From: Phapecoctavirus DIJ07P2
Direction: 5' to 3' (one strand)
Sequence record: OZ035771.1
Length of the DNA stretch: 64,000 nt
The notes below the pieces were generated by a model. That model did no database searches and was not told the origin of the DNA. It saw nothing but the letters and a program-made list of their open reading frames with translations. This document shows, one piece after another, positions 4,574 through 41,307 of this stretch (the stretch's first letter is position 1; every line of letters begins with the position of its first letter). The translations under genes and the position numbers were made by a program.

Positions 4574-7204
4574 TTAACGATCCTCTCTGATTTGATTAAT
4601 CTTACGAGCAAGGGCAGCTATAAGCTTATCTTCTTCAGATACAGGAGCCGTGCTCTTACCTAAACGATGCATGTCTAAAATCTCTTGAACAGTTCGGTTC
4701 CATTGCAGACATTTAATACAACGTGTATGTGCAACATACAGAAGATTTCGTTCTGATTCTTCAAGACCTACCCACTCACCCTTCTTATCGTAATTAGAAG
4801 GGAAGTCATTTGCAACAATAACCTGATCCCATTCCAAACCTTTTGATTTGTGGGCTGTAGTTAAAGTAACTTTAGCCGTTGGAGAGTTACGGTGCATACG
4901 TAAAGTGTATGCAATATTATTAGCTTTACCAGAAACAACAATGTTTAAAAGTCGTTTTGCATCAGGATCTGATTCTGCACACTCTACAAATTCTTCCCAA
5001 GAAGTGTAAGGTAGAACTGTCTCATGCTTAACTTTGTCCAAATCACCTCTACGTAAAGCATTAACACTATCAACCATAGAAATGAAATCTTTGGTATCTA
5101 CGTTAATAATAATCTCTTCTCCGTTAGCGATTCGATCCATTGCCTCCATAAGCAAGGTTAAATTCTTGCGAAAGATGATAGTGTAAGGTTTTGTATAGTC
5201 TACAACATCTGATTTGTAGCTACCTACTACAGTATCAAAGCCTTTACCAACCAAAGGATGACGCAAAGGTTCTTTATCGCTTAAAATCATATTGGCAATG
5301 TTTGCCACTTTGGGGCCAAAACGGAAGCAAGCAGTTAATGGAAGCTCTGCCCCATACTTAGCTGTTTCAATCATCATATTAGAGCTACCTCTAAATTGAT
5401 AAATGCAGTTGTGGCTAAGAATTTCATTGCCAAAGAAGTTAGCAGTATCCTCTACTTCAATATCATAATAGATACCCTCACTATCTACAATGTCCACAAT
5501 CTCTTCTGCCGTTACAGTATCACCATCTTTTACCAACACAGACATGCCTTTAAACAAACCCGCTGCCGGAATTAAGTTATATTTGGCAGTGTCTACAGAG
5601 GACATGCATTCTTTTAAAGATGCAAACGGAACTATTTCAAGGATCTTTTGTGCAAAACTCAATGCTTCACAATAAGAATTGAAATATTTACGTACACGGT
5701 AACGACCTTCCAATTTAGCAACACTTACGCTTACACCTGCTTTAATGAGTGAAGCATAGATCGGCATTTCACTTTCTGTCCACTCAAAACTGACTTGTGT
5801 TCCTTTACAACCTTGTGCTCGCAAAGTCACTGTTAACATTTTTCTTTCATCTACTGCACAATTGATGCTGTGCCAATGTGGATAAGCAAAATGATAGTCT
5901 TTATCCTCTAAAAGTTTAAAACCATTCTGTCCGAATTGTTCAAAGATGTTATTGATCCTTTCTTGATTAATGCCGCGTGAACTTGCTTCAAATACACAAG
6001 TAGGAATGCCATATTGTAAACTGTATGCCATTTCTTTTTCCATAGCAGCTTCGCGATTTTCAACAATGTCCAACACCCATAATTTCTGTGCTTTTTCAGA
6101 ACGTGTACGTTGCCCCAGTTTAGAAAAACCTTCTTTATCATCGAATTTGTTAGTGATCCCTACTCGGAAACCTAAATCTTTCCTCCACATTAGGTATACC
6201 ACCATCTGGTCATCTTTCAGAACATAAGATGAAGCCCAAATACGATGGTTATGTGTCATATCTAAAGTTTTACCTGTAGCAGTAATAATATTCCTACCTT
6301 TTGTACGTGTAGATAAAGTCTTATTTGTTACTTTTCTAAATGTAACTTTACCATTAGAATAAGACTCTACCTTATCACCGATTTGCAGGTCTTTCATTGT
6401 AACCTGACCATTCTCGGTGTTAAGTACCGTGTTTTCCGACACACATTGAAATTCATCACCCACAACAACAATACGTTTAGCCGATTTAGCATTACGAAGG
6501 ATAGACAGGAATGCAGGGTTAACATCCTGGAATTCATCTCCAAAAATAATATCGTATCCTAAATCTTCTTTGCTCAATTCAAAGAGTTTCACATAGGTGT
6601 CATGAGTCATAATGGTTTCTGATTTAGGATCAATACGCTCACGCCAAAGTTGCTTCGCATATTTAACAACTTCGTTAATAAGTTTTTGTTCGTTGATGTT
6701 TTTACGTTTTAGGTCTGACATGTGCACTTTAGGAAAATGTTTATGTCCGATATGTTCATCGTCAGAAAACTCATATTTAGCTAAAGTTTGTTTTACCATT
6801 AACCCGATCATTGCACGAGTCAGTAGCACTTTACCATTCTTATCGATCAAGTTCTGAATCTTAAATTTCTTGGCAATCTCACTACCAGTTCCAGCTACGT
6901 TAACATATTGACCTTCTGGACGAGATAATTTGTGTCGAAGGTTTTGTGGAAGACGCTGGTAACAGATAGAATGTAGCGTTCGGCACATAACATTGGGCGG
7001 CATTTTACGTCGAGCTTCCTCTGCCATACTTTTGTTAAATGCCAAATATAGAATACTATCATTTGTGCCATTAGCCAACATATACAGTGTTGACGTTTTA
7101 CCTGATCCAGATTTAGCTTGAATTGTAACGAAACGATTTTCTTTATACCCGCTTTCAATAGCGTATTGTTCATCAGTAGGTGTAAAACTCAATTGTGTAG
7201 ACAC
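4574..7204 (-). CDS. SF1 (UvrD/PcrA-like) DNA helicase containing an intein
   Basis: Walker A AKSGSGKTS, motif II IFGDEFQD, motif III VVVGDEFQ|CIYQFRGS split by insertion, C-terminal TAHKSKGLEW and VAHTRC motifs. Confidence 0.85.
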   Translation of the reverse strand: MSTQLSFTPTDEQYAIESGYKENRFVTIQAKSGSGKTSTLYMLANGTNDSILYLAFNKSMAEEARRKMPPNVMCRTLHSICYQRLPQNLRHKLSRPEGQYVNVAGTGSEIAKKFKIQNLIDKNGKVLLTRAMIGLMVKQTLAKYEFSDDEHIGHKHFPKVHMSDLKRKNINEQKLINEVVKYAKQLWRERIDPKSETIMTHDTYVKLFELSKEDLGYDIIFGDEFQDVNPAFLSILRNAKSAKRIVVVGDEFQCVSENTVLNTENGQVTMKDLQIGDKVESYSNGKVTFRKVTNKTLSTRTKGRNIITATGKTLDMTHNHRIWASSYVLKDDQMVVYLMWRKDLGFRVGITNKFDDKEGFSKLGQRTRSEKAQKLWVLDIVENREAAMEKEMAYSLQYGIPTCVFEASSRGINQERINNIFEQFGQNGFKLLEDKDYHFAYPHWHSINCAVDERKMLTVTLRAQGCKGTQVSFEWTESEMPIYASLIKAGVSVSVAKLEGRYRVRKYFNSYCEALSFAQKILEIVPFASLKECMSSVDTAKYNLIPAAGLFKGMSVLVKDGDTVTAEEIVDIVDSEGIYYDIEVEDTANFFGNEILSHNCIYQFRGSSNMMIETAKYGAELPLTACFRFGPKVANIANMILSDKEPLRHPLVGKGFDTVVGSYKSDVVDYTKPYTIIFRKNLTLLMEAMDRIANGEEIIINVDTKDFISMVDSVNALRRGDLDKVKHETVLPYTSWEEFVECAESDPDAKRLLNIVVSGKANNIAYTLRMHRNSPTAKVTLTTAHKSKGLEWDQVIVANDFPSNYDKKGEWVGLEESERNLLYVAHTRCIKCLQWNRTVQEILDMHRLGKSTAPVSEEDKLIAALARKINQIREDR
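5408..6445 (-). mobile_element. Intein (346 aa) within helicase motif III
   Basis: Starts CVSENTVLNTENGQVTMKDLQIGDKV (block A), has TLDMTHNHRIW (block B), ends YDIEVEDTANFFGNEILSHN followed by extein Cys; codon checks at 6443-6445 (Cys) and 5408-5410 (Asn). Confidence 0.8.
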
Positions 7205-14328: not shown

Positions 14329-14493
14329 ATGATTTTAAACTTCATCATCAACTTGTGTTTGACATTGGGACTACTCTGTGCAATAGTATCCCCTCTGGTT
14401 GGTGAATATTTTTCTGAACTGGCGATGTTTATAGTTCTTGGTGCGGCTGTTGCTAACATGTTTGTCGCTGCGATTTGTATGTTGTGGGAATAG
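14329..14493 (+). CDS. Small membrane protein (54 aa), self-derived
   Basis: TAAGGAGAG RBS; two hydrophobic segments (MILNFIINLCLTLGLLCAIV..., ...AMFIVLGAAVANMFVAAICM). Confidence 0.45.
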   Translation: MILNFIINLCLTLGLLCAIVSPLVGEYFSELAMFIVLGAAVANMFVAAICMLWE

Positions 14494-14504
14494 GAGGGAA
14501 GTTT

Positions 14505-14861
14505 ATGAAAAAATTAATCTTAGCCACATTGCTGGCTACCGTAAGCTTCACCACTTACGCTCAAAAATTTGTAGCAGTTAAAACAGATATTGGTAAAGAT
14601 GTTGTGATCACAGGCAACAAGTTTTACTATACACCTGGGAATGGTGTTCTAGAAGAGTGCAAAGATGTTGAGGCATATACAGGAAAAGAAGATAACACGG
14701 AACGTCCTTTTTATTCGATTATAGCTACTTGCAAAAATGAAATAGTAGCTATTAAACAATACAAAGATGCACCTGGAGGAGAGTACTTATTAATCAAGAA
14801 TATTAAGAGTGAAAAAACTGCAAAGTTTACAGTAATTATTTTAAAAGGAGAAACGTTCTAA
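14505..14861 (+). CDS. Putative secreted protein (118 aa)
   Basis: Signal-peptide-like MKKLILATLLATVSFTTYAQ after AGGAGGG RBS. Confidence 0.55.
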   Translation: MKKLILATLLATVSFTTYAQKFVAVKTDIGKDVVITGNKFYYTPGNGVLEECKDVEAYTGKEDNTERPFYSIIATCKNEIVAIKQYKDAPGGEYLLIKNIKSEKTAKFTVIILKGETF

Positions 14862-16000
14862 TGAAATACACTATTTTTGGAGATGTGGCTGTTGTAAATA
14901 AGGAATATGGTGTTGAAGCTAATAAACTTCCTGCTGGAGTTTGGGTTGTCAACTGCGATCCGCACGGTAACTACTCTTTAGTGCGTGGCGAAAGTTTCTC
15001 TCTTCCGAACACTCTTTATGGGGAAACTAAAGACCGCGCCGCACATATTATTAAAACATTTGCTCGTCGTAGTAAAGAAGGTAAAAATACTGGGGTGTTA
15101 CTGACAGGGACAAAGGGCAGTGGTAAGACGATGTTAGCTAAACTGATTAGCATGTCCCTAATGTCCACAGAAGGTTTAGGTATTCCAACCATTTTGGTGA
15201 CACAGCCTTACACAGATGCTGGATTCTTAGAATTTATGAGTAAAATTACAGATCGTGCTGTTGTTTTATTTGACGAGTTTGATAAAGTGTACGCTAAGAA
15301 AGAAGATCAGGAAGCACTGTTGACCTTGTTGGATGGAACAGGAAGTGGAAATAAACTTTACATCCTCACTAAAAATAGTGGCTATATCTCGGAATATTTT
15401 GTAAACCGTCCTAGTCGTATCTACTACAGTTTCAATTACGATAAACTGTCTAGTGAAACTATGTTAGATTACTTGGATAAGAACTTGGTAAATAAAAAGC
15501 ACGTAGATAACTTCCAACGTTTATGGGATGTTAGCACAGAGTTGTCTTTCGATGTTATTCAAGGCATTGTAGAAGAATTGAATTTCTATCCAAAAATGAC
15601 TTTTAAAGAATGTCTGGAAATGATGGGTATTTCTTTAGGCAACGATGCTAAATGGAATGTGGCTTCTATCGTAGCTAATGGCAAAACACTGAAGGTGAAT
15701 TGGATCAATAACTGGCACGACTTCACCCCTACTAAGTTTTTGTCGGGTGCTTGTTCCCTGAACATCTATCTGCAAAGCTTGAAAGATGATGAAGTTGAAG
15801 CAATGGAAACCAACAGTTATGTTATCCTGGATGAAGATGGTGATCCACATATTGATCTATGTGCAACGGCGGATGGTCTAACTTGTGATCTGATTGAAGG
15901 TGGTAAGATTCTGGTTATGAGCACTACACCAGGAAACACTCTGCGAGTGGTGCTGGAGCCTGTAACACAACGTTCCACCACACTGGGTAGCGTGTTCTAA
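14861..16000 (+). CDS. AAA-family ATPase
   Basis: Walker A GTKGSGKT, Walker B VVLFDEFDK, sensor-like ILTKN. Confidence 0.7.
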   Translation: MKYTIFGDVAVVNKEYGVEANKLPAGVWVVNCDPHGNYSLVRGESFSLPNTLYGETKDRAAHIIKTFARRSKEGKNTGVLLTGTKGSGKTMLAKLISMSLMSTEGLGIPTILVTQPYTDAGFLEFMSKITDRAVVLFDEFDKVYAKKEDQEALLTLLDGTGSGNKLYILTKNSGYISEYFVNRPSRIYYSFNYDKLSSETMLDYLDKNLVNKKHVDNFQRLWDVSTELSFDVIQGIVEELNFYPKMTFKECLEMMGISLGNDAKWNVASIVANGKTLKVNWINNWHDFTPTKFLSGACSLNIYLQSLKDDEVEAMETNSYVILDEDGDPHIDLCATADGLTCDLIEGGKILVMSTTPGNTLRVVLEPVTQRSTTLGSVF

Positions 16001-16017
16001 TAAGGCTACCTTATTAA

Positions 16018-16039
16018 ACCCGCTTCGGCGGGTTTTGTT
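16018..16039 (+). terminator. Intrinsic terminator (ACCCGC-TTCG-GCGGGT + T-tract)
   Basis: GC hairpin with UUCG loop followed by TTTTGTT just after AAA ATPase stop; same hairpin recurs at 39114 and 45251. Confidence 0.6.
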
Positions 16040-16077
16040 ATATTGATTTCAGTTTAATAGGAAGAGAATTGTTAGAT

Positions 16078-17076
16078 ATGCCAGTAAAGAAGAGTATTGA
16101 AACATATATGGAAGAATGTAAGCCGATAGCTGAGGCTAAAGGGATTACCATTCTCGGCACGTATGGAGAAGATAAAGGTGTGCATACGAAGATGATCAAT
16201 AGTTGTGAGCATGGTCATGAATGGAATACTACAACGTTTCACAGTTTTAAAGATGGTCGAGGTTGTCCTAAGTGCGCCTACAGGGAACGTTCGAAAAAGA
16301 GAAGCAAAGCTATCACTATTCCAGACCAGCAACACATACAAGATTTTATGAAGGTAGGTAAATTTAAGGAAGGCACTATTTTCACCAATACAGGGGAACG
16401 TAAAGGGTGTGATATAGTATGGATGGTTGAATGTCCTGTTTGCTCTCATGATGAATATGTGGAAGCTGGGGTGTGTGATGGTAAATTCTATGCTACCGGA
16501 AGTCATCTTAAACGTGGGTGTCTCCCTTGCCGCTGTTCTACGAGTTACAAATACACAGAGGATCAGACCACCTATAGAACAAGAAAGGAAGTAGAAAGGA
16601 GAGGATATATATTGGTAGGATGGATCGGTAAACCTTCAACAATGGGTAAGTTTAAATATAGATGTAAGGAGCACGGGGAACAGATAGGGCGTGCAGATGG
16701 TTTGCTACATAAGGGGAGTGGGTGTCCGCAGTGCGGGGGCCAAAATCAACAACAATGTTACATTAATCATATTTATGATGAAGATGGTATTCTTTGTGCA
16801 CTGAAGTTTGGTATTGCCAATAGTAGTGATCGCCGTATCAAAGAACAGAATAGCCGCAATGTGTTTACTATGAGACAAGTTCAAGTGTGGCAGTTCCCCA
16901 CTGTGAAGCAGTGTAAAAATTCAGAAAAGTATTGCAAAAAGGTGTTAGACACAGAAGCAGTGAGCAAATATGCTATGCCAGACGGCTACACAGAAACAGT
17001 GGAGCTATCTTGTCTGGCATCAATACAAAACATTTATAAACTTTATGGTGGAATATTACAGGAGGAAACATGTTAG
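16078..17076 (+). CDS. Cys-rich protein with repeated G-x-G-C-P-x-C zinc-ribbon-like motifs; possible nuclease
   Basis: DGRGCPKCAY, KRGCLPCRC, GSGCPQCGG repeats; function not assignable by eye. Confidence 0.5.
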   Translation: MPVKKSIETYMEECKPIAEAKGITILGTYGEDKGVHTKMINSCEHGHEWNTTTFHSFKDGRGCPKCAYRERSKKRSKAITIPDQQHIQDFMKVGKFKEGTIFTNTGERKGCDIVWMVECPVCSHDEYVEAGVCDGKFYATGSHLKRGCLPCRCSTSYKYTEDQTTYRTRKEVERRGYILVGWIGKPSTMGKFKYRCKEHGEQIGRADGLLHKGSGCPQCGGQNQQQCYINHIYDEDGILCALKFGIANSSDRRIKEQNSRNVFTMRQVQVWQFPTVKQCKNSEKYCKKVLDTEAVSKYAMPDGYTETVELSCLASIQNIYKLYGGILQEETC

Positions 17077-17435
17077 TTGACGTTCAAATTATGCGCAACG
17101 AAAGAATGGACTTCTTTGAAGCAGTAGAGAAACATCTGATCAGATGGGACTATGAATTTGTTCCTGCTGGATGTGGACCAGTAGAGCATTTAGCGGAAGA
17201 CGACGATGTATACATGATCATTCGTCAAGTGTACCAGACAGACCAGTGTGAAGAAACTCCCGAACTGATTTTGTTTGAGTGTAAAGATCTTGCAAAATAT
17301 TTTGACTATGGCGGAAAAGAGGGTCATAATCTCTCCAGATACAATAAACGTCTACTTATCTTAGACTACATGCGGAACAATAAACACAAACTCATCGACG
17401 CAGACGCAGTTTATGGCTACTGGTGGATGGATTAA
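17070..17435 (+). CDS. Hypothetical protein (121 aa)
   Basis: ORF overlapping upstream stop. Confidence 0.5.
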   Translation: MLVDVQIMRNERMDFFEAVEKHLIRWDYEFVPAGCGPVEHLAEDDDVYMIIRQVYQTDQCEETPELILFECKDLAKYFDYGGKEGHNLSRYNKRLLILDYMRNNKHKLIDADAVYGYWWMD

Positions 17436-17448
17436 CAAAGGAGAAACT

Positions 17449-17628
17449 ATGGCACGTTTAGCAGACCATGAAATCTTTAAACCTATTCTGAACCACTATG
17501 ATGAACTTAAAGCAGTGTTGGATTGTTATAGAGAGGATGAAGAACGTTTGGAAGTCAATCTTAAGATAGTTCTGATGAAAGCTTTTCAAGACGGGCAAGC
17601 TAAAGTTTTAGAAGGCATGAAAAAATGA
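17449..17628 (+). CDS. Hypothetical protein (59 aa)
   Basis: Start at ATG (MARLADH) after AAAGGAG RBS. Confidence 0.45.
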   Translation: MARLADHEIFKPILNHYDELKAVLDCYREDEERLEVNLKIVLMKAFQDGQAKVLEGMKK

Positions 17629-18167
17629 GAATAACTGATGAATATGTATTCTTCTTTTCACATAAAGATGTGTTTAGTAATTGGTATATTGCACCCTTTA
17701 CAGAAACTGAACCAGGTTACAATGAGACTTTCTGTTGTGTTGAGCAATATATGATGTGGCGTAAGGCTTTGCTGTTCAAGGATCATGCGATTGCAGCAGC
17801 TATCCTTGATCACTCAACTATACGTGACAACGAGAGGAAACAAGCATACTACAAACGTATGGGTCGAGCGGTATCTGGTTTTAATAATGATATGTGGGAA
17901 GAGAACCGTGAGCGTATTGTTATGCGAGGTTTATGCTTGAAATATGTACAGAATCCAGATTTGTATGCAGACTTACACCTTTACCAATACAAAACGTTTG
18001 TTGAAGCAAGTCCTTACGATAAGGTTTACGGTATTGGAATGGGAATGTATGAACCAGGGGTGCTAAATCCGGTCAACTGGAAAGGGCAAAATCTTTTAGG
18101 TAAATATCATAACAAACTGATCGAAATACTTTTCCCAGACAAAATACCGCAAAGACGATATTTGTGA
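17625..18167 (+). CDS. NADAR-domain (YbiA/DUF1768-like) protein
   Basis: FFFS..DVFSNWY, CCVEQYMMWRKALLF, VEASPYDKVYGIGMG, GQNLLGKYHNKLIEIL match the NADAR pattern as recalled. Confidence 0.65.
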   Translation: MRITDEYVFFFSHKDVFSNWYIAPFTETEPGYNETFCCVEQYMMWRKALLFKDHAIAAAILDHSTIRDNERKQAYYKRMGRAVSGFNNDMWEENRERIVMRGLCLKYVQNPDLYADLHLYQYKTFVEASPYDKVYGIGMGMYEPGVLNPVNWKGQNLLGKYHNKLIEILFPDKIPQRRYL

Positions 18168-18223
18168 TATTTTAACTTTTTTCATTTTTAGAACAAAGGT
18201 GTCACTTTGTAGCACAGAAATAA

Positions 18224-18259
18224 GGCTCCTACAGCACCGTAGAGAGCCTATTATTTTGT
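18224..18259 (+). terminator. Putative intrinsic terminator after the NADAR gene
   Basis: AGGCTC...GAGCCT stem followed by ATTATTTTG. Confidence 0.45.
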
Positions 18260-18390
18260 CCTATACAAACCCTTGTCTTTTTCAGTTTGCATCACTAGGA
18301 TTCGATCTGAGTGGGTTCCTGAAGGTCTGCCAATAAGATTAAAGGTTATCTCAAATTCCCACTACCTATTATCTCAAAAATCCCTCAAAT

Positions 18391-18456
18391 TATTTAAACT
18401 TTTTAAGAATTTACAAAAGTGAAAGTTGAAAACCAAAATTTAAAGTTTAGGAAAAT
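18391..18456. repeat. AT-rich direct repeat, copy 1
   Basis: TATTTAAACTTTTTAAGAATTTACAAAAGTGAAAGTTGAAAACCAAAATTTAAAGTTTAGGAAAATT; near-duplicate at 18529-18593. Confidence 0.6.
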
Positions 18457-18528
18457 TATCTTAAAATGTCAGATACAAAACAAAACTCAAAAGTCAAGGA
18501 AAATTTTAAAAATTTTGCGCGCCCACAG

Positions 18529-18593
18529 TATTTAAAGTTTTTTTGCTTTTACAAAAATGAAAGTACAAAAGCAAAATTTAAAGTTTACAAAAA
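18529..18593. repeat. AT-rich direct repeat, copy 2
   Basis: TATTTAAAGTTTTTTTGCTTTTACAAAAATGAAAGTACAAAAGCAAAATTTAAAGTTTACAAAAATT. Confidence 0.6.
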
Positions 18594-18607
18594 TTTATGC
18601 AGATGGG

Positions 18608-18655
18608 AATGAGAAGAGTTCTCATATGGAAATGCAAATGATAATGATTCGCATT
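18608..18655. promoter_or_regulatory. Fur-box-like palindromic operator candidates (AATGAGAAGAGTTCTCAT; AATGATAATGATTCGCATT)
   Basis: Resemble the 19-bp Fur consensus GATAATGATAATCATTATC as recalled. Confidence 0.35.
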
Positions 18656-18693
18656 TAGGTTTATAAATGAGATTGATTCTTATTTGATAAGGT

Positions 18694-18714
18694 AAATGAT
18701 AATCATTCTCATTT
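18694..18714. promoter_or_regulatory. Fur-box-like operator candidate (AAATGATAATCATTCTCATTT)
   Basis: About 15 of 19 positions match the Fur consensus by eye; shares ATCATTCTCAT core with sites at 28963 and 29141. Confidence 0.4.
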
Positions 18715-18972
18715 AGAGAATGACGCGCAGGGGCGGTGTTTGTCTCGCGCTCCCGTGTCCCCTCGCCATGTAATAAGAATAACAGATCCAGCCAGGAAAG
18801 CAAGCGATTATTTTATCTTTACATTTCTTTACAAATATATAGCGCCCAGCCTACCGGCGATCAACCTTCCAACCAGCGCCCTGGTATGTTAGCCCCGCCT
18901 TTACGCCGTGGGGGTGGCGCTTCCTCTTCTGTATGTAAAACAGTATAAGCCCGATCCCTGGGCTTGTCAAGA

Positions 18973-19239
18973 TTATTTTTTGTTTTCTTGCCAGGTTAGG
19001 ACACCTAGCCAAAAATGAATATCACCTTTTCCCCAATGTGGTATATTGCTTTCTTTCCCACCTTCACGCGCCCAGGTAAAACCGCCCGTGTAACTTTGTA
19101 ATTGATAACTATCCTCGACCTTATAATCTGATAGGTTGAGAACTGTTTCAACCTTTAAGCCCGTTGCGCTTGCTACCTGGTGCACCGTGCCGCCTTGCCA
19201 GCCCAATGAGTGCATAAGGTGTAATGTAGTATTTGTCAT
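18973..19239 (-). CDS. Hypothetical protein (88 aa) in GC-richer spacer
   Basis: Only leftward ORF in this region; weak RBS. Confidence 0.3.
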   Translation of the reverse strand: MTNTTLHLMHSLGWQGGTVHQVASATGLKVETVLNLSDYKVEDSYQLQSYTGGFTWAREGGKESNIPHWGKGDIHFWLGVLTWQENKK

Positions 19240-39776: not shown

Positions 39777-40577
39777 TTATTTGTTTAAATGGTCTTCAAC
39801 CATTTTGATAAAGCCTTCATCACTGAAGACTGTTCCTGCTTTCTCTCGGTAGACAAGCACTCCACGTTCTTCGTAGAGAGTTTGTTCTACAAAATTCAAA
39901 CCTGGGTTAACTACAACCATCTTAACCCCAATATTCAGGGCAGGGAAGAGTTCCCAGTTGAAGTTGATTACTTGGTTAGAGCAGCCTACAACGATAACCA
40001 TATCTTGTGATGTTAGTTGATCCAGTTTGTGATACATGTCTGTGTAGAGCGGTGCATTCTCACCAAAAAACACCACATTAGGCTTCACATATTTGTAATC
40101 GTCTACATCAATAGCTGCGTAACCCACATCTTTGATAATTTTGTTATCAACAACAACTTCTGGCAAGAAACCATGAACGTGCAATATTTCTTCTCTATCG
40201 ATTCCAGCGCGTTCTAATAGATCGTCAACGTTAGTAGTGATGTTAATAATCCTTTCTGCACCGTATTTTTCGAACCATTCTCCAATCTGAAGATGTGCTG
40301 GATTCGGGTCAACTTTCTCTAATTCCACGCGACGTTTATTGTAGAAGTCGTGAGTTTTACGGTAGAGGTTATATCCTTCCACATCTAAGCCACCCATAGC
40401 ATCAGGAATACCCTGTTCTTGCTGATAACCGGCACGGAAGTTGAAAATGTCACAAACCTCAGAAAGATCATAAGAAGACCATAACGCCTCCCCTGAAGAA
40501 GTATCTGTTCTAAAAGCTGGGATACCGCTATCCACAGATAGTCCTGCGCCAGTTATGAATATGACTCTACGCGGCAT
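39777..40577 (-). CDS. SIR2-family (sirtuin-like) NAD-dependent protein, zinc-ribbon-less
   Basis: GAGLSVDSGIPAFR, TTNVDDLLERAG, LHVHG, VVFFGE, VVGCSNQV motifs; no CxxC pairs. Confidence 0.7.
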   Translation of the reverse strand: MPRRVIFITGAGLSVDSGIPAFRTDTSSGEALWSSYDLSEVCDIFNFRAGYQQEQGIPDAMGGLDVEGYNLYRKTHDFYNKRRVELEKVDPNPAHLQIGEWFEKYGAERIINITTNVDDLLERAGIDREEILHVHGFLPEVVVDNKIIKDVGYAAIDVDDYKYVKPNVVFFGENAPLYTDMYHKLDQLTSQDMVIVVGCSNQVINFNWELFPALNIGVKMVVVNPGLNFVEQTLYEERGVLVYREKAGTVFSDEGFIKMVEDHLNK

Positions 40578-41307
40578 AAATCTCCTCCTTATATTTTTCG
40601 CAAATGCTTTTATTTGCAGGTTTATATTTTTCTTTCATCACCTTCAATCTTAGCTTCTCCAGAGCTATAGCACATCTCTCTGGATCGTTGAAACCATATT
40701 TGCAATACGTGGTCTTGTCAAACACAAACTTGAAAAAGAATGTTCTCTCTCTTGTTGCCACAAACACACAACTTAATCCTGAAGTGTTATCTATACGCTT
40801 CTTTTCTTTTTTGATATAAGATCCTTTCAAAATTTCTTGTTTTGCTAAAGCTCTAGCTACAATAGCTTCCTCTTTAGTTTTGAAACCTGAAACAGAGAAA
40901 GTTTCTTGGTTGTAGTTTATAACCCAAAGAAAAACACCATCCTTTTCATAAATACCTTCTAACCCATCCACATGTCTATTATTATTATTTAATAAATAGT
41001 TACTATCTAATAAATTACTTTCCGCATTATTAAGTTTATTGCCGTCGTCATGGTCTATAACATCTGGACAGTAATTATGGTACATTTTAAAACAAACTCT
41101 GTGCTCCAAGTATACAATACCATCTATTTTGACATGAGAGTAACCAACTTTATCAATAGTCCCTGCAATCTTCCCTGCGTATCTGCTATTCCACCTTTTG
41201 TTCTCTTTTGTTGTAGAAGGTTTAGGTTTCCAAACAAGACGACCATTCTCCACACTAAACCTTGATAACAAGTAATCTCTATCTGGTAAGGGTTTTCGTT
41301 CTATCAT
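40567..41307 (-). CDS. Freestanding homing endonuclease (HNH with AP2-like DNA-binding domain)
   Basis: HRVCFKMYHN...IDHDDGNKLNN HNH-like motif and VSGFKTKEEAIVARALAKQE AP2-like segment; overlaps SIR2 start by 11 nt. Confidence 0.65.
   Translation of the reverse strand: MIERKPLPDRDYLLSRFSVENGRLVWKPKPSTTKENKRWNSRYAGKIAGTIDKVGYSHVKIDGIVYLEHRVCFKMYHNYCPDVIDHDDGNKLNNAESNLLDSNYLLNNNNRHVDGLEGIYEKDGVFLWVINYNQETFSVSGFKTKEEAIVARALAKQEILKGSYIKKEKKRIDNTSGLSCVFVATRERTFFFKFVFDKTTYCKYGFNDPERCAIALEKLRLKVMKEKYKPANKSICEKYKEEIYAA

Follow-up and report, generated by a model that had tools for sequence, protein, structure and literature searches.

A NADAR protein of an Escherichia coli Phapecoctavirus and its probable role in countering DarTG1

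The NADAR gene and its surroundings

We analysed a 64,000-nt stretch of DNA (hereafter the window) from Phapecoctavirus DIJ07P2 (OZ035771.1), an E. coli Phapecoctavirus of the Stephanstirmvirinae. The open reading frame at 17625..18167 (+) starts with ATG and encodes a NADAR protein of 180 aa, exactly as a first-pass annotation, made from the sequence without database searches, had described it. The NADAR region shares 95% DNA identity with Escherichia phage Mt1B1_P17 and its relatives. The start codon of the gene overlaps the stop codon of the preceding small ORF in an ATGA at 17625-17628, and the NADAR gene is therefore probably read from the same transcript as that ORF, both being translated from this shared message.

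Upstream on the same strand lie an AAA ATPase gene (14861-16000), followed by a clean terminator-like hairpin found in a terminator scan (16016-16035), and a gene (16069-17076) for a 335-aa protein with three stretches of CapR homology (PF21817, E=4e-25) and a treble-clef zinc finger. RefSeq relatives of this CapR-domain gene are labelled 'endonuclease', and its product varies in length: it has 335 aa in the window and 332 aa in phage tuntematon but reaches 467 aa (Bas60) and 486 aa (vB_EcoM_REC). These features suggest a mobile or domain-swapping gene of the homing-endonuclease type, and on account of its variable length, its label and its mobile appearance we set it aside as a partner of the NADAR protein. 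The CapR-domain gene is followed, ahead of the NADAR gene, by two small ORFs (121 aa and 59–71 aa), which gave no matches and are absent from Justusliebigvirus. We saw no evidence of a functional partnership between the upstream genes and the NADAR gene, and there is no ART gene among its neighbours (AAA ATPase, CapR-domain protein, small ORFs).

Downstream, RNA folding places a putative intrinsic terminator at 18224..18258 (+), with the hairpin GGCTCCTAC...GTAGAGAGCC followed by TATTATTTTG. The fold of 18160-18270 has an energy of –30.3 kcal/mol (z=–5.07 relative to shuffled sequences, none of 200 being as stable), and the hairpin with its T-tract probably ends the rightward block. A simple terminator scanner made no call at 18224-18258, probably owing to the bulged stem; in phage phAPEC8, a 'terminator' annotation lies somewhere within the matched stretch. 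The next 800 nt or so contain no ORF of at least 100 aa, and the first gene called beyond them lies on the minus strand. The NADAR gene is thus the last of its block, with a hairpin and T-tract on its 3′ side, which agrees with the position proposed for it by the first-pass annotation.

The gap beyond the terminator is AT-rich and repetitive between 18386 and 18716. It holds a 72-nt direct repeat (18386-18457 and 18524-18595, 82% identity) and three copies of a unit with 29-nt spacing (AATGAnAAnGATTCnCATTT) at 18608-18716, an array that also includes a 22-nt inverted repeat (18664-18685 and 18694-18715). In phage tuntematon the corresponding intergenic gap carries 'repeat_region' annotations. 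These repeats could form an iteron-like or origin-like element, or a regulatory one. An Rfam scan of the whole 64,000-nt window at gathering thresholds returned no hits, and a tRNA scan of the window found none.

Further along the window, a SIR2-family (sirtuin) protein is encoded at 39777-40577 on the minus strand (PF02146, E=2e-20), adjoined by an ORF at 40567-41307 (minus strand) with a weak match to HNH endonucleases. Phage Bas60 carries a sirtuin, a cluster of macrodomain, phosphoribosyltransferase and HAD genes, and genes for Prs and Nampt. Because of the SIR2 gene in the window and these Bas60 genes, we conclude that Stephanstirmvirinae phages possess, in addition to the NADAR gene, a considerable set of NAD/ADP-ribose genes.

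Fold, active site and subfamily of the 180-aa protein

The Pfam NADAR profile PF08719 matches the 180-aa protein at E=8e-35, with 120.9 bits against a gathering threshold of 35.1, a score that we regard as far beyond chance. The match runs from residue 11 to residue 161 and over profile positions 3–154 of 163, and so covers essentially the whole protein. NCBIfam TIGR02464, a domain-level model named 'riboflavin biosynthesis intermediates N-glycosidase', scores 114.2 bits (cut-off 73.7). The protein also matches PHROG 1017 (E=3.5e-51), a family with no assigned function, and the PADLOC model PDC-M42C. In structure-derived sequences, the Phytophthora nicotianae NADAR (PnNADAR; PDB 8BAU) is matched at E=1.2e-12 with the single sequence and at E=8e-36 with a profile; it is the sole PDB structure returned by the single-sequence phmmer search at E<=1, YbiA being absent from those matches.

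An AlphaFold2 model built on 44 homologues has a mean pLDDT of 95.2 and a pTM of 0.88, and displays the alpha+beta NADAR fold, a helical core with small flanking beta sheets. When this model was used as a Foldseek query, the only significant PDB matches were 8BAU (TM 0.79) and E. coli YbiA (2B3W, TM 0.69). Two of the checks that had been suggested for the first-pass call, a search with the NADAR model and a structure prediction, thus support it: the profile score is significant, and the confidently predicted fold has as its nearest structure an enzyme crystallised in complex with ADP-ribose. Together, sequence and model indicate that the 180-aa protein is an intact, full-length, single-domain NADAR, and the claim that it carries NADAR/DUF1768 segments holds.

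The active site can be read from PnNADAR, in which Schuller et al. described E43, K50, R79, W89, R93, E125, D130 and W133 as contacts of ADP-ribose (PMC11543638; the chain crystallised in 8BAU is numbered with an offset of 2 residues from that paper). In HMMER alignments these correspond to E40, K47, R81, W91, R95, E127, D132 and Y135 of the phage protein, so that Y135 in place of W133 is the sole substitution among the eight contacts. Across the 44 homologues, which are 39–91% identical to the 180-aa query, five of these residues (E40, K47, W91, E127 and D132) never vary, and conservation of R81 is 90% or higher. The first-pass annotation would have given up its call had the catalytic residues been lost; E40 and K47 are both aligned to 8BAU and invariant, and they remain so in an 8-sequence alignment with YbiA and T4 gp30.3.

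E40 (codon GAG, 17742..17744, +) is the predicted catalytic glutamate and corresponds to E43 of PnNADAR, E36 of T4 AdfN and E88 of E. coli C7 DarG1. K47 (codon AAG, 17763..17765, +), the predicted catalytic or ADPr-binding lysine, corresponds to K50, K43 and K95 of the same three proteins. The roles of this Glu/Lys pair are taken from published work (PMC11543638; PMC11257639): mutation of E36 or K43 inactivates T4 AdfN, K43A abolishing its function, and the RB69 allele is inactivated by loss of the last helix (PMC11257639). That helix (residues 157–169) is present in the modelled phage protein. The third position, E127 (codon GAA, 18003..18005, +; E125 of PnNADAR), lies in a 'VEASP' motif that is invariant among the 44 homologues and is the acidic residue diagnostic of subfamily.

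At this diagnostic position, YbiA and generic NADARs have Glu, the DarG1 proteins linked to DarT1 have Asp, and T4-type phage NADARs have His (PMC11543638). The phage protein has Glu, and T4 gp30.3 has His. With a profile of the clade, PnNADAR scores 126 bits and E. coli YbiA 62 bits, and no DarG1-type chain is listed at E<=10. The 180-aa protein accordingly belongs to the generic, Glu-type branch of NADARs. Membership of the DarG1/BC4488 family was ruled out by the Glu in place of Asp, a domain that starts at about residue 4 and the lack of an ART neighbour. T4-type membership was likewise ruled out by Glu where T4 has His and by a non-significant BLASTP comparison with gp30.3 (E=3.8), and at the sequence level the protein appears unrelated to T4 AdfN.

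The first-pass description of the protein as YbiA-like stands at the level of superfamily and fold, given the TM score of 0.69 to 2B3W. In the strict sense it does not: the profile scores favour PnNADAR twofold in bits, and BLASTP against E. coli YbiA aligns only 96 C-terminal residues at 29% identity. YbiA sensu stricto was ruled out on these profile scores and on flanking genes without matches to riboflavin genes or to dinG/ybiB. The same data bear on a metabolic reading, in which the protein would be a YbiA-type N-glycosidase of reactive riboflavin-pathway intermediates, or a GTP cyclohydrolase II. That reading can draw on the TIGR02464 score of 114 bits, above the cut-off of 73.7, and on relatives labelled 'GTP cyclohydrolase II' or 'YbiA-like N-glycosidase'. 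However, the single NADAR domain (residues 11–161) leaves no room for a GTP cyclohydrolase II domain, the clade is nearer to PnNADAR than to YbiA, the flanking genes (14475-19239) gave no riboflavin-pathway match, and E. coli YbiA itself also hydrolyses G-ADPr (PMC11125620). Since the gene sits in a phage and its product is less close to YbiA than to PnNADAR, we consider a metabolic role the least likely of the rivals and highly improbable.

Annotations of the relatives are inconsistent, ranging over 'hypothetical protein', 'GTP cyclohydrolase II', 'N-glycosidase' and 'NADAR family protein'. We reject 'GTP cyclohydrolase II' (OM386667 REC_00034, MT496970, PQ571307) as a propagated mis-annotation, PF08719 being the only domain and no cyclohydrolase domain being present. 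Some NADAR homologues are labelled 'ribA/ribD-fused uncharacterized protein', and we infer that the cyclohydrolase name most likely originated in RibA/RibD-NADAR fusion proteins.

The copy in phage vB_EcoM_REC shares 98.9% identity with the window protein. Seventy phage records hold a NADAR copy with at least 80% protein identity, and the locus matches 140 Stephanstirmvirinae-type records. The gene is under purifying selection, because dN/dS is 0.07–0.14 relative to the other Phapecoctavirus copies. In the tuntematon copy (90% identical), the differences from the window protein cluster in residues 34–88, with only two in residues 89–180, which hints that 17775-17895 (residues 51–90) is either a mosaic, recombined segment or a fast-evolving surface around helices 2–3.

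Several records with other host names match at the locus. Phages listed as 'Campylobacter phage' (C. jejuni; MG065650, MG065639 and others) and as 'Acinetobacter phage vB_AbaM_ABPW7' (OP562383) share 88–94% DNA identity with E. coli Stephanstirmvirinae there; these host labels look doubtful, and the records may stem from contaminating coliphages. A Burkholderia NADAR that is 42% identical (5001-5480 on its contigs) is flanked by a Gp3-like protein (PF18897) with DUF7696 on one side and by a faint metallophosphatase match on the other. The neighbouring genes that we inspected include no DarT. This context looks prophage-like, and some of the bacterial NADARs nearest to the phage clade may themselves be prophage-borne.

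The Bas60 orthologue and probable counter-defence against DarTG1

The 180-aa protein is 57% identical over 172 aa (E=3e-67) to bas60_0111 (QXV83846.1) of Bas60, that is, Escherichia phage PaulScherrer (MZ501100), now placed in Justusliebigvirus, the sister genus within Stephanstirmvirinae. A family HMM scan of six-frame ORFs, which covered 150,000 of the 150,425 bp of Bas60, found bas60_0111 as the only NADAR ORF, and we therefore identify it with the published AdfN-Bas60. In Bas60 an AAA ATPase gene and a CapR-type gene precede bas60_0111, which closes a rightward block; after a gap of some 800 nt comes a minus-strand ORF of 88 aa. The position of the window gene matches this order. An NJ tree places the window and Bas60 clades as sisters, with moderate bootstrap support for the joint clade (121/200). 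bas60_0111 and 17625..18167 are thus positional orthologues, an assignment that rests mainly on synteny because the bootstrap value is only moderate.

This orthology connects the gene to a published line of work. T4 gp30.3 (AdfN) strips DarT1-made ADP-ribose from phage DNA (Johannesman, Awasthi, Carlson, LeRoux; PMC11257639, preprint; PMC11825919, Nat Commun 2025). The NADARs of Bas32 and Bas60, which are unrelated to AdfN-T4, neutralise DarT1 in uninfected cells (that of Bas60 with no other phage factors) and allow three DarTG1-sensitive phages, RB69, T5 and Bas25, to form plaques on DarTG1 hosts again; the tested phage NADARs have no effect on DarTG2 (thymine) defence (PMC11825919). The idea of an anti-DarT NADAR was therefore already published in 2024–2025 for T4, Bas32 and Bas60, and the Phapecoctavirus gene adds another member. 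We found no mention in the literature of a Phapecoctavirus NADAR, nor of one tried against DarTG.

We consider the 180-aa protein to be best explained as a guanine-ADPr DNA glycohydrolase of the AdfN-Bas60 type that counters DarTG1, with a probability of roughly three in four. Counter-defence against DarTG-like systems, the role put forward in the first-pass annotation, is the best supported one, given a syntenic, 57%-identical Bas60 orthologue that neutralises DarT1 and rescues phages on DarTG1 hosts. The range of that proposal narrows: guanine modification by DarTG1 is the expected target, and DarTG2, which acts on thymine and is not countered by the tested phage NADARs, falls outside it. 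From the orthologue we infer the same activity and physiological role for the Phapecoctavirus copy. Hydrolysis of G-ADPr by the 180-aa protein in vitro is very likely, because this activity is shared by members of each of the four NADAR families assayed (PMC11125620; PMC12945103).

A model that accommodates these data would run as follows. On infection of a DarTG1 cell, DarT1 would be activated and would ADP-ribosylate the N2 of guanine in phage DNA, blocking replication. The phage NADAR would bind ADP-ribosyl-guanine and hydrolyse the N-glycosidic bond between the ribose and N2 of guanine by means of Glu40, Lys47 and Glu127. With unmodified DNA restored, replication could resume and the phage would escape the defence. 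A stand-alone phage NADAR would in this way act as an 'orphan antitoxin' (AdfN, Bas60 type).

Some points count against this explanation. Two NADARs that are active on G-ADPr in vitro, E. coli YbiA and T4 gp30.3, do not rescue uninfected cells from DarT1 (PMC11125620), and in-cell NADAR specificity is thus not predictable from activity in vitro. In addition, 43% of the residues are unlike those of the Bas60 orthologue, and W133 of PnNADAR is replaced by Tyr.

The substrate could also be wider than DarT1-modified DNA. The protein might be a broad eraser of N-glycosidic ADPr adducts whose chief targets in the cell are not DarT1 products but C-ADPr, G-ADPr or C-ADPr on RNA, or the products of DarT-unrelated toxins such as YarT or pierisin-like ARTs, the action against DarTG1 being only one facet. 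Its place in the Glu-type generic branch fits such a role, generic and YbiA NADARs removing C-ADPr from DNA and RNA as DarG1 proteins and the T4 NADAR do not (PMC12945103). A YbiA-family NADAR is the antitoxin of a non-DarT toxin, YarT, and the authors of the AdfN study note that such an enzyme acts whichever toxin placed the adduct. However, no phage defence based on C-ADPr is known, the biological role of C-ADPr being listed as unknown (PMC12945103), action against DarTG1 is the sole phenotype measured in vivo for the orthologue (PMC11825919), and the window holds no sign of a different target. We therefore judge a broad eraser of this kind unlikely.

The NAD/ADP-ribose genes of these phages bear on a further proposal, that the protein degrades small ADPr-based immune signals or toxins (cADPR-type or other N-glycosidic ADPr molecules) and not DNA adducts. 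Comparative genomics predicted such a function for phage NADAR, Macro, SLOG and Nudix domains (PMC9503650), and it would sit well with the macrodomain, phosphoribosyltransferase and sirtuin genes of Stephanstirmvirinae, with Prs and Nampt in Bas60 and with SIR2 in the window. However, the prediction is older than the biochemistry, every NADAR tested since acts on base adducts of nucleic acids (PMC11125620; PMC11543638; PMC12945103), removal of ADP-ribose from DNA explains the phenotype of the orthologue (PMC11825919), and cleavage of an immune signalling molecule has been shown for no NADAR. Signal degradation in place of removal of DNA adducts is very unlikely in our view.

A combined form is unlikely: the Stephanstirmvirinae NADAR might be a general eraser of base-linked ADPr, acting on G and C whether in DNA or in RNA, and perhaps also on small N-glycosidic signals. 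If so, it would protect against several ART-based or NAD-derived defences, not DarTG1 alone, and could cooperate with the macrodomain, sirtuin and NAD-salvage genes of the phages.

Returning to the preferred explanation, action against DarTG1, it predicts that phages with a Bas60-type NADAR are insensitive to DarTG1, though not necessarily to DarTG2. It would also allow a gene carried by about 140 deposited Stephanstirmvirinae genomes to be named by its function, as the anti-DarT factor NADAR of the AdfN-Bas60 type; many of the phages concerned are candidates for therapy against E. coli. With the concept and the closest orthologue already published, the practical value lies in corrected annotation across a widespread group of E. 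coli phages.

Comparison with known NADAR systems

Among known systems, DarG1 (BC4488 family; E. coli C7 and G. lovleyi) has the same chemistry and counters the same toxin as proposed for the phage NADAR. Its diagnostic residue is Asp (D171 of E. coli C7), it carries an N-terminal beta-beta-alpha DNA-binding extension, and its gene adjoins darT1 (PMC11543638), whereas the phage protein has Glu, no N-terminal extension and no ART gene nearby. E. coli YbiA shares the fold (TM 0.69), the Glu-type 'VE' motif and the catalytic Glu/Lys pair with the phage protein, but lacks the loop present at residues 138–150 of the latter. It is an N-glycosidase of riboflavin intermediates, encoded on the chromosome next to dinG and ybiB, with which it forms a LexA-controlled operon (PMC11125620). 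PnNADAR (8BAU) is the best structural match (TM 0.79, 28% identity) and the best PDB sequence match, with Glu at E125; it is a guanine-ADPr hydrolase of the generic NADAR family, crystallised with ADP-ribose. Unlike the phage protein, it is eukaryotic, has a 27-residue insertion before the last helix and plays no role in phage counter-defence.

The two phage systems differ in their relation to the protein described here. T4 gp30.3 (AdfN-T4) belongs to the same superfamily, its catalytic Glu and Lys align, and the same job is proposed for it, the removal of DarT1-made G-ADPr from phage DNA. However, AdfN-T4 needs the context of T-even infection and cannot act alone as an antitoxin, whereas the Bas60 type can (PMC11825919), and T4-type and Bas60-type phage NADARs represent independent acquisitions. 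AdfN-Bas60 itself differs from the window protein at 43% of its residues, carries a 7-residue insertion after residue 27 and ends in a different C-terminal tail, and its locus lacks the two small ORFs (121 aa and 59 aa) that separate the CapR-domain gene from the NADAR gene in the window. The two proteins are nevertheless close in length (183 vs 180 aa) and have an identical E/K/R/W/R/E/D active-site set, including the motifs VEQYMMWRK and VEASPYD.
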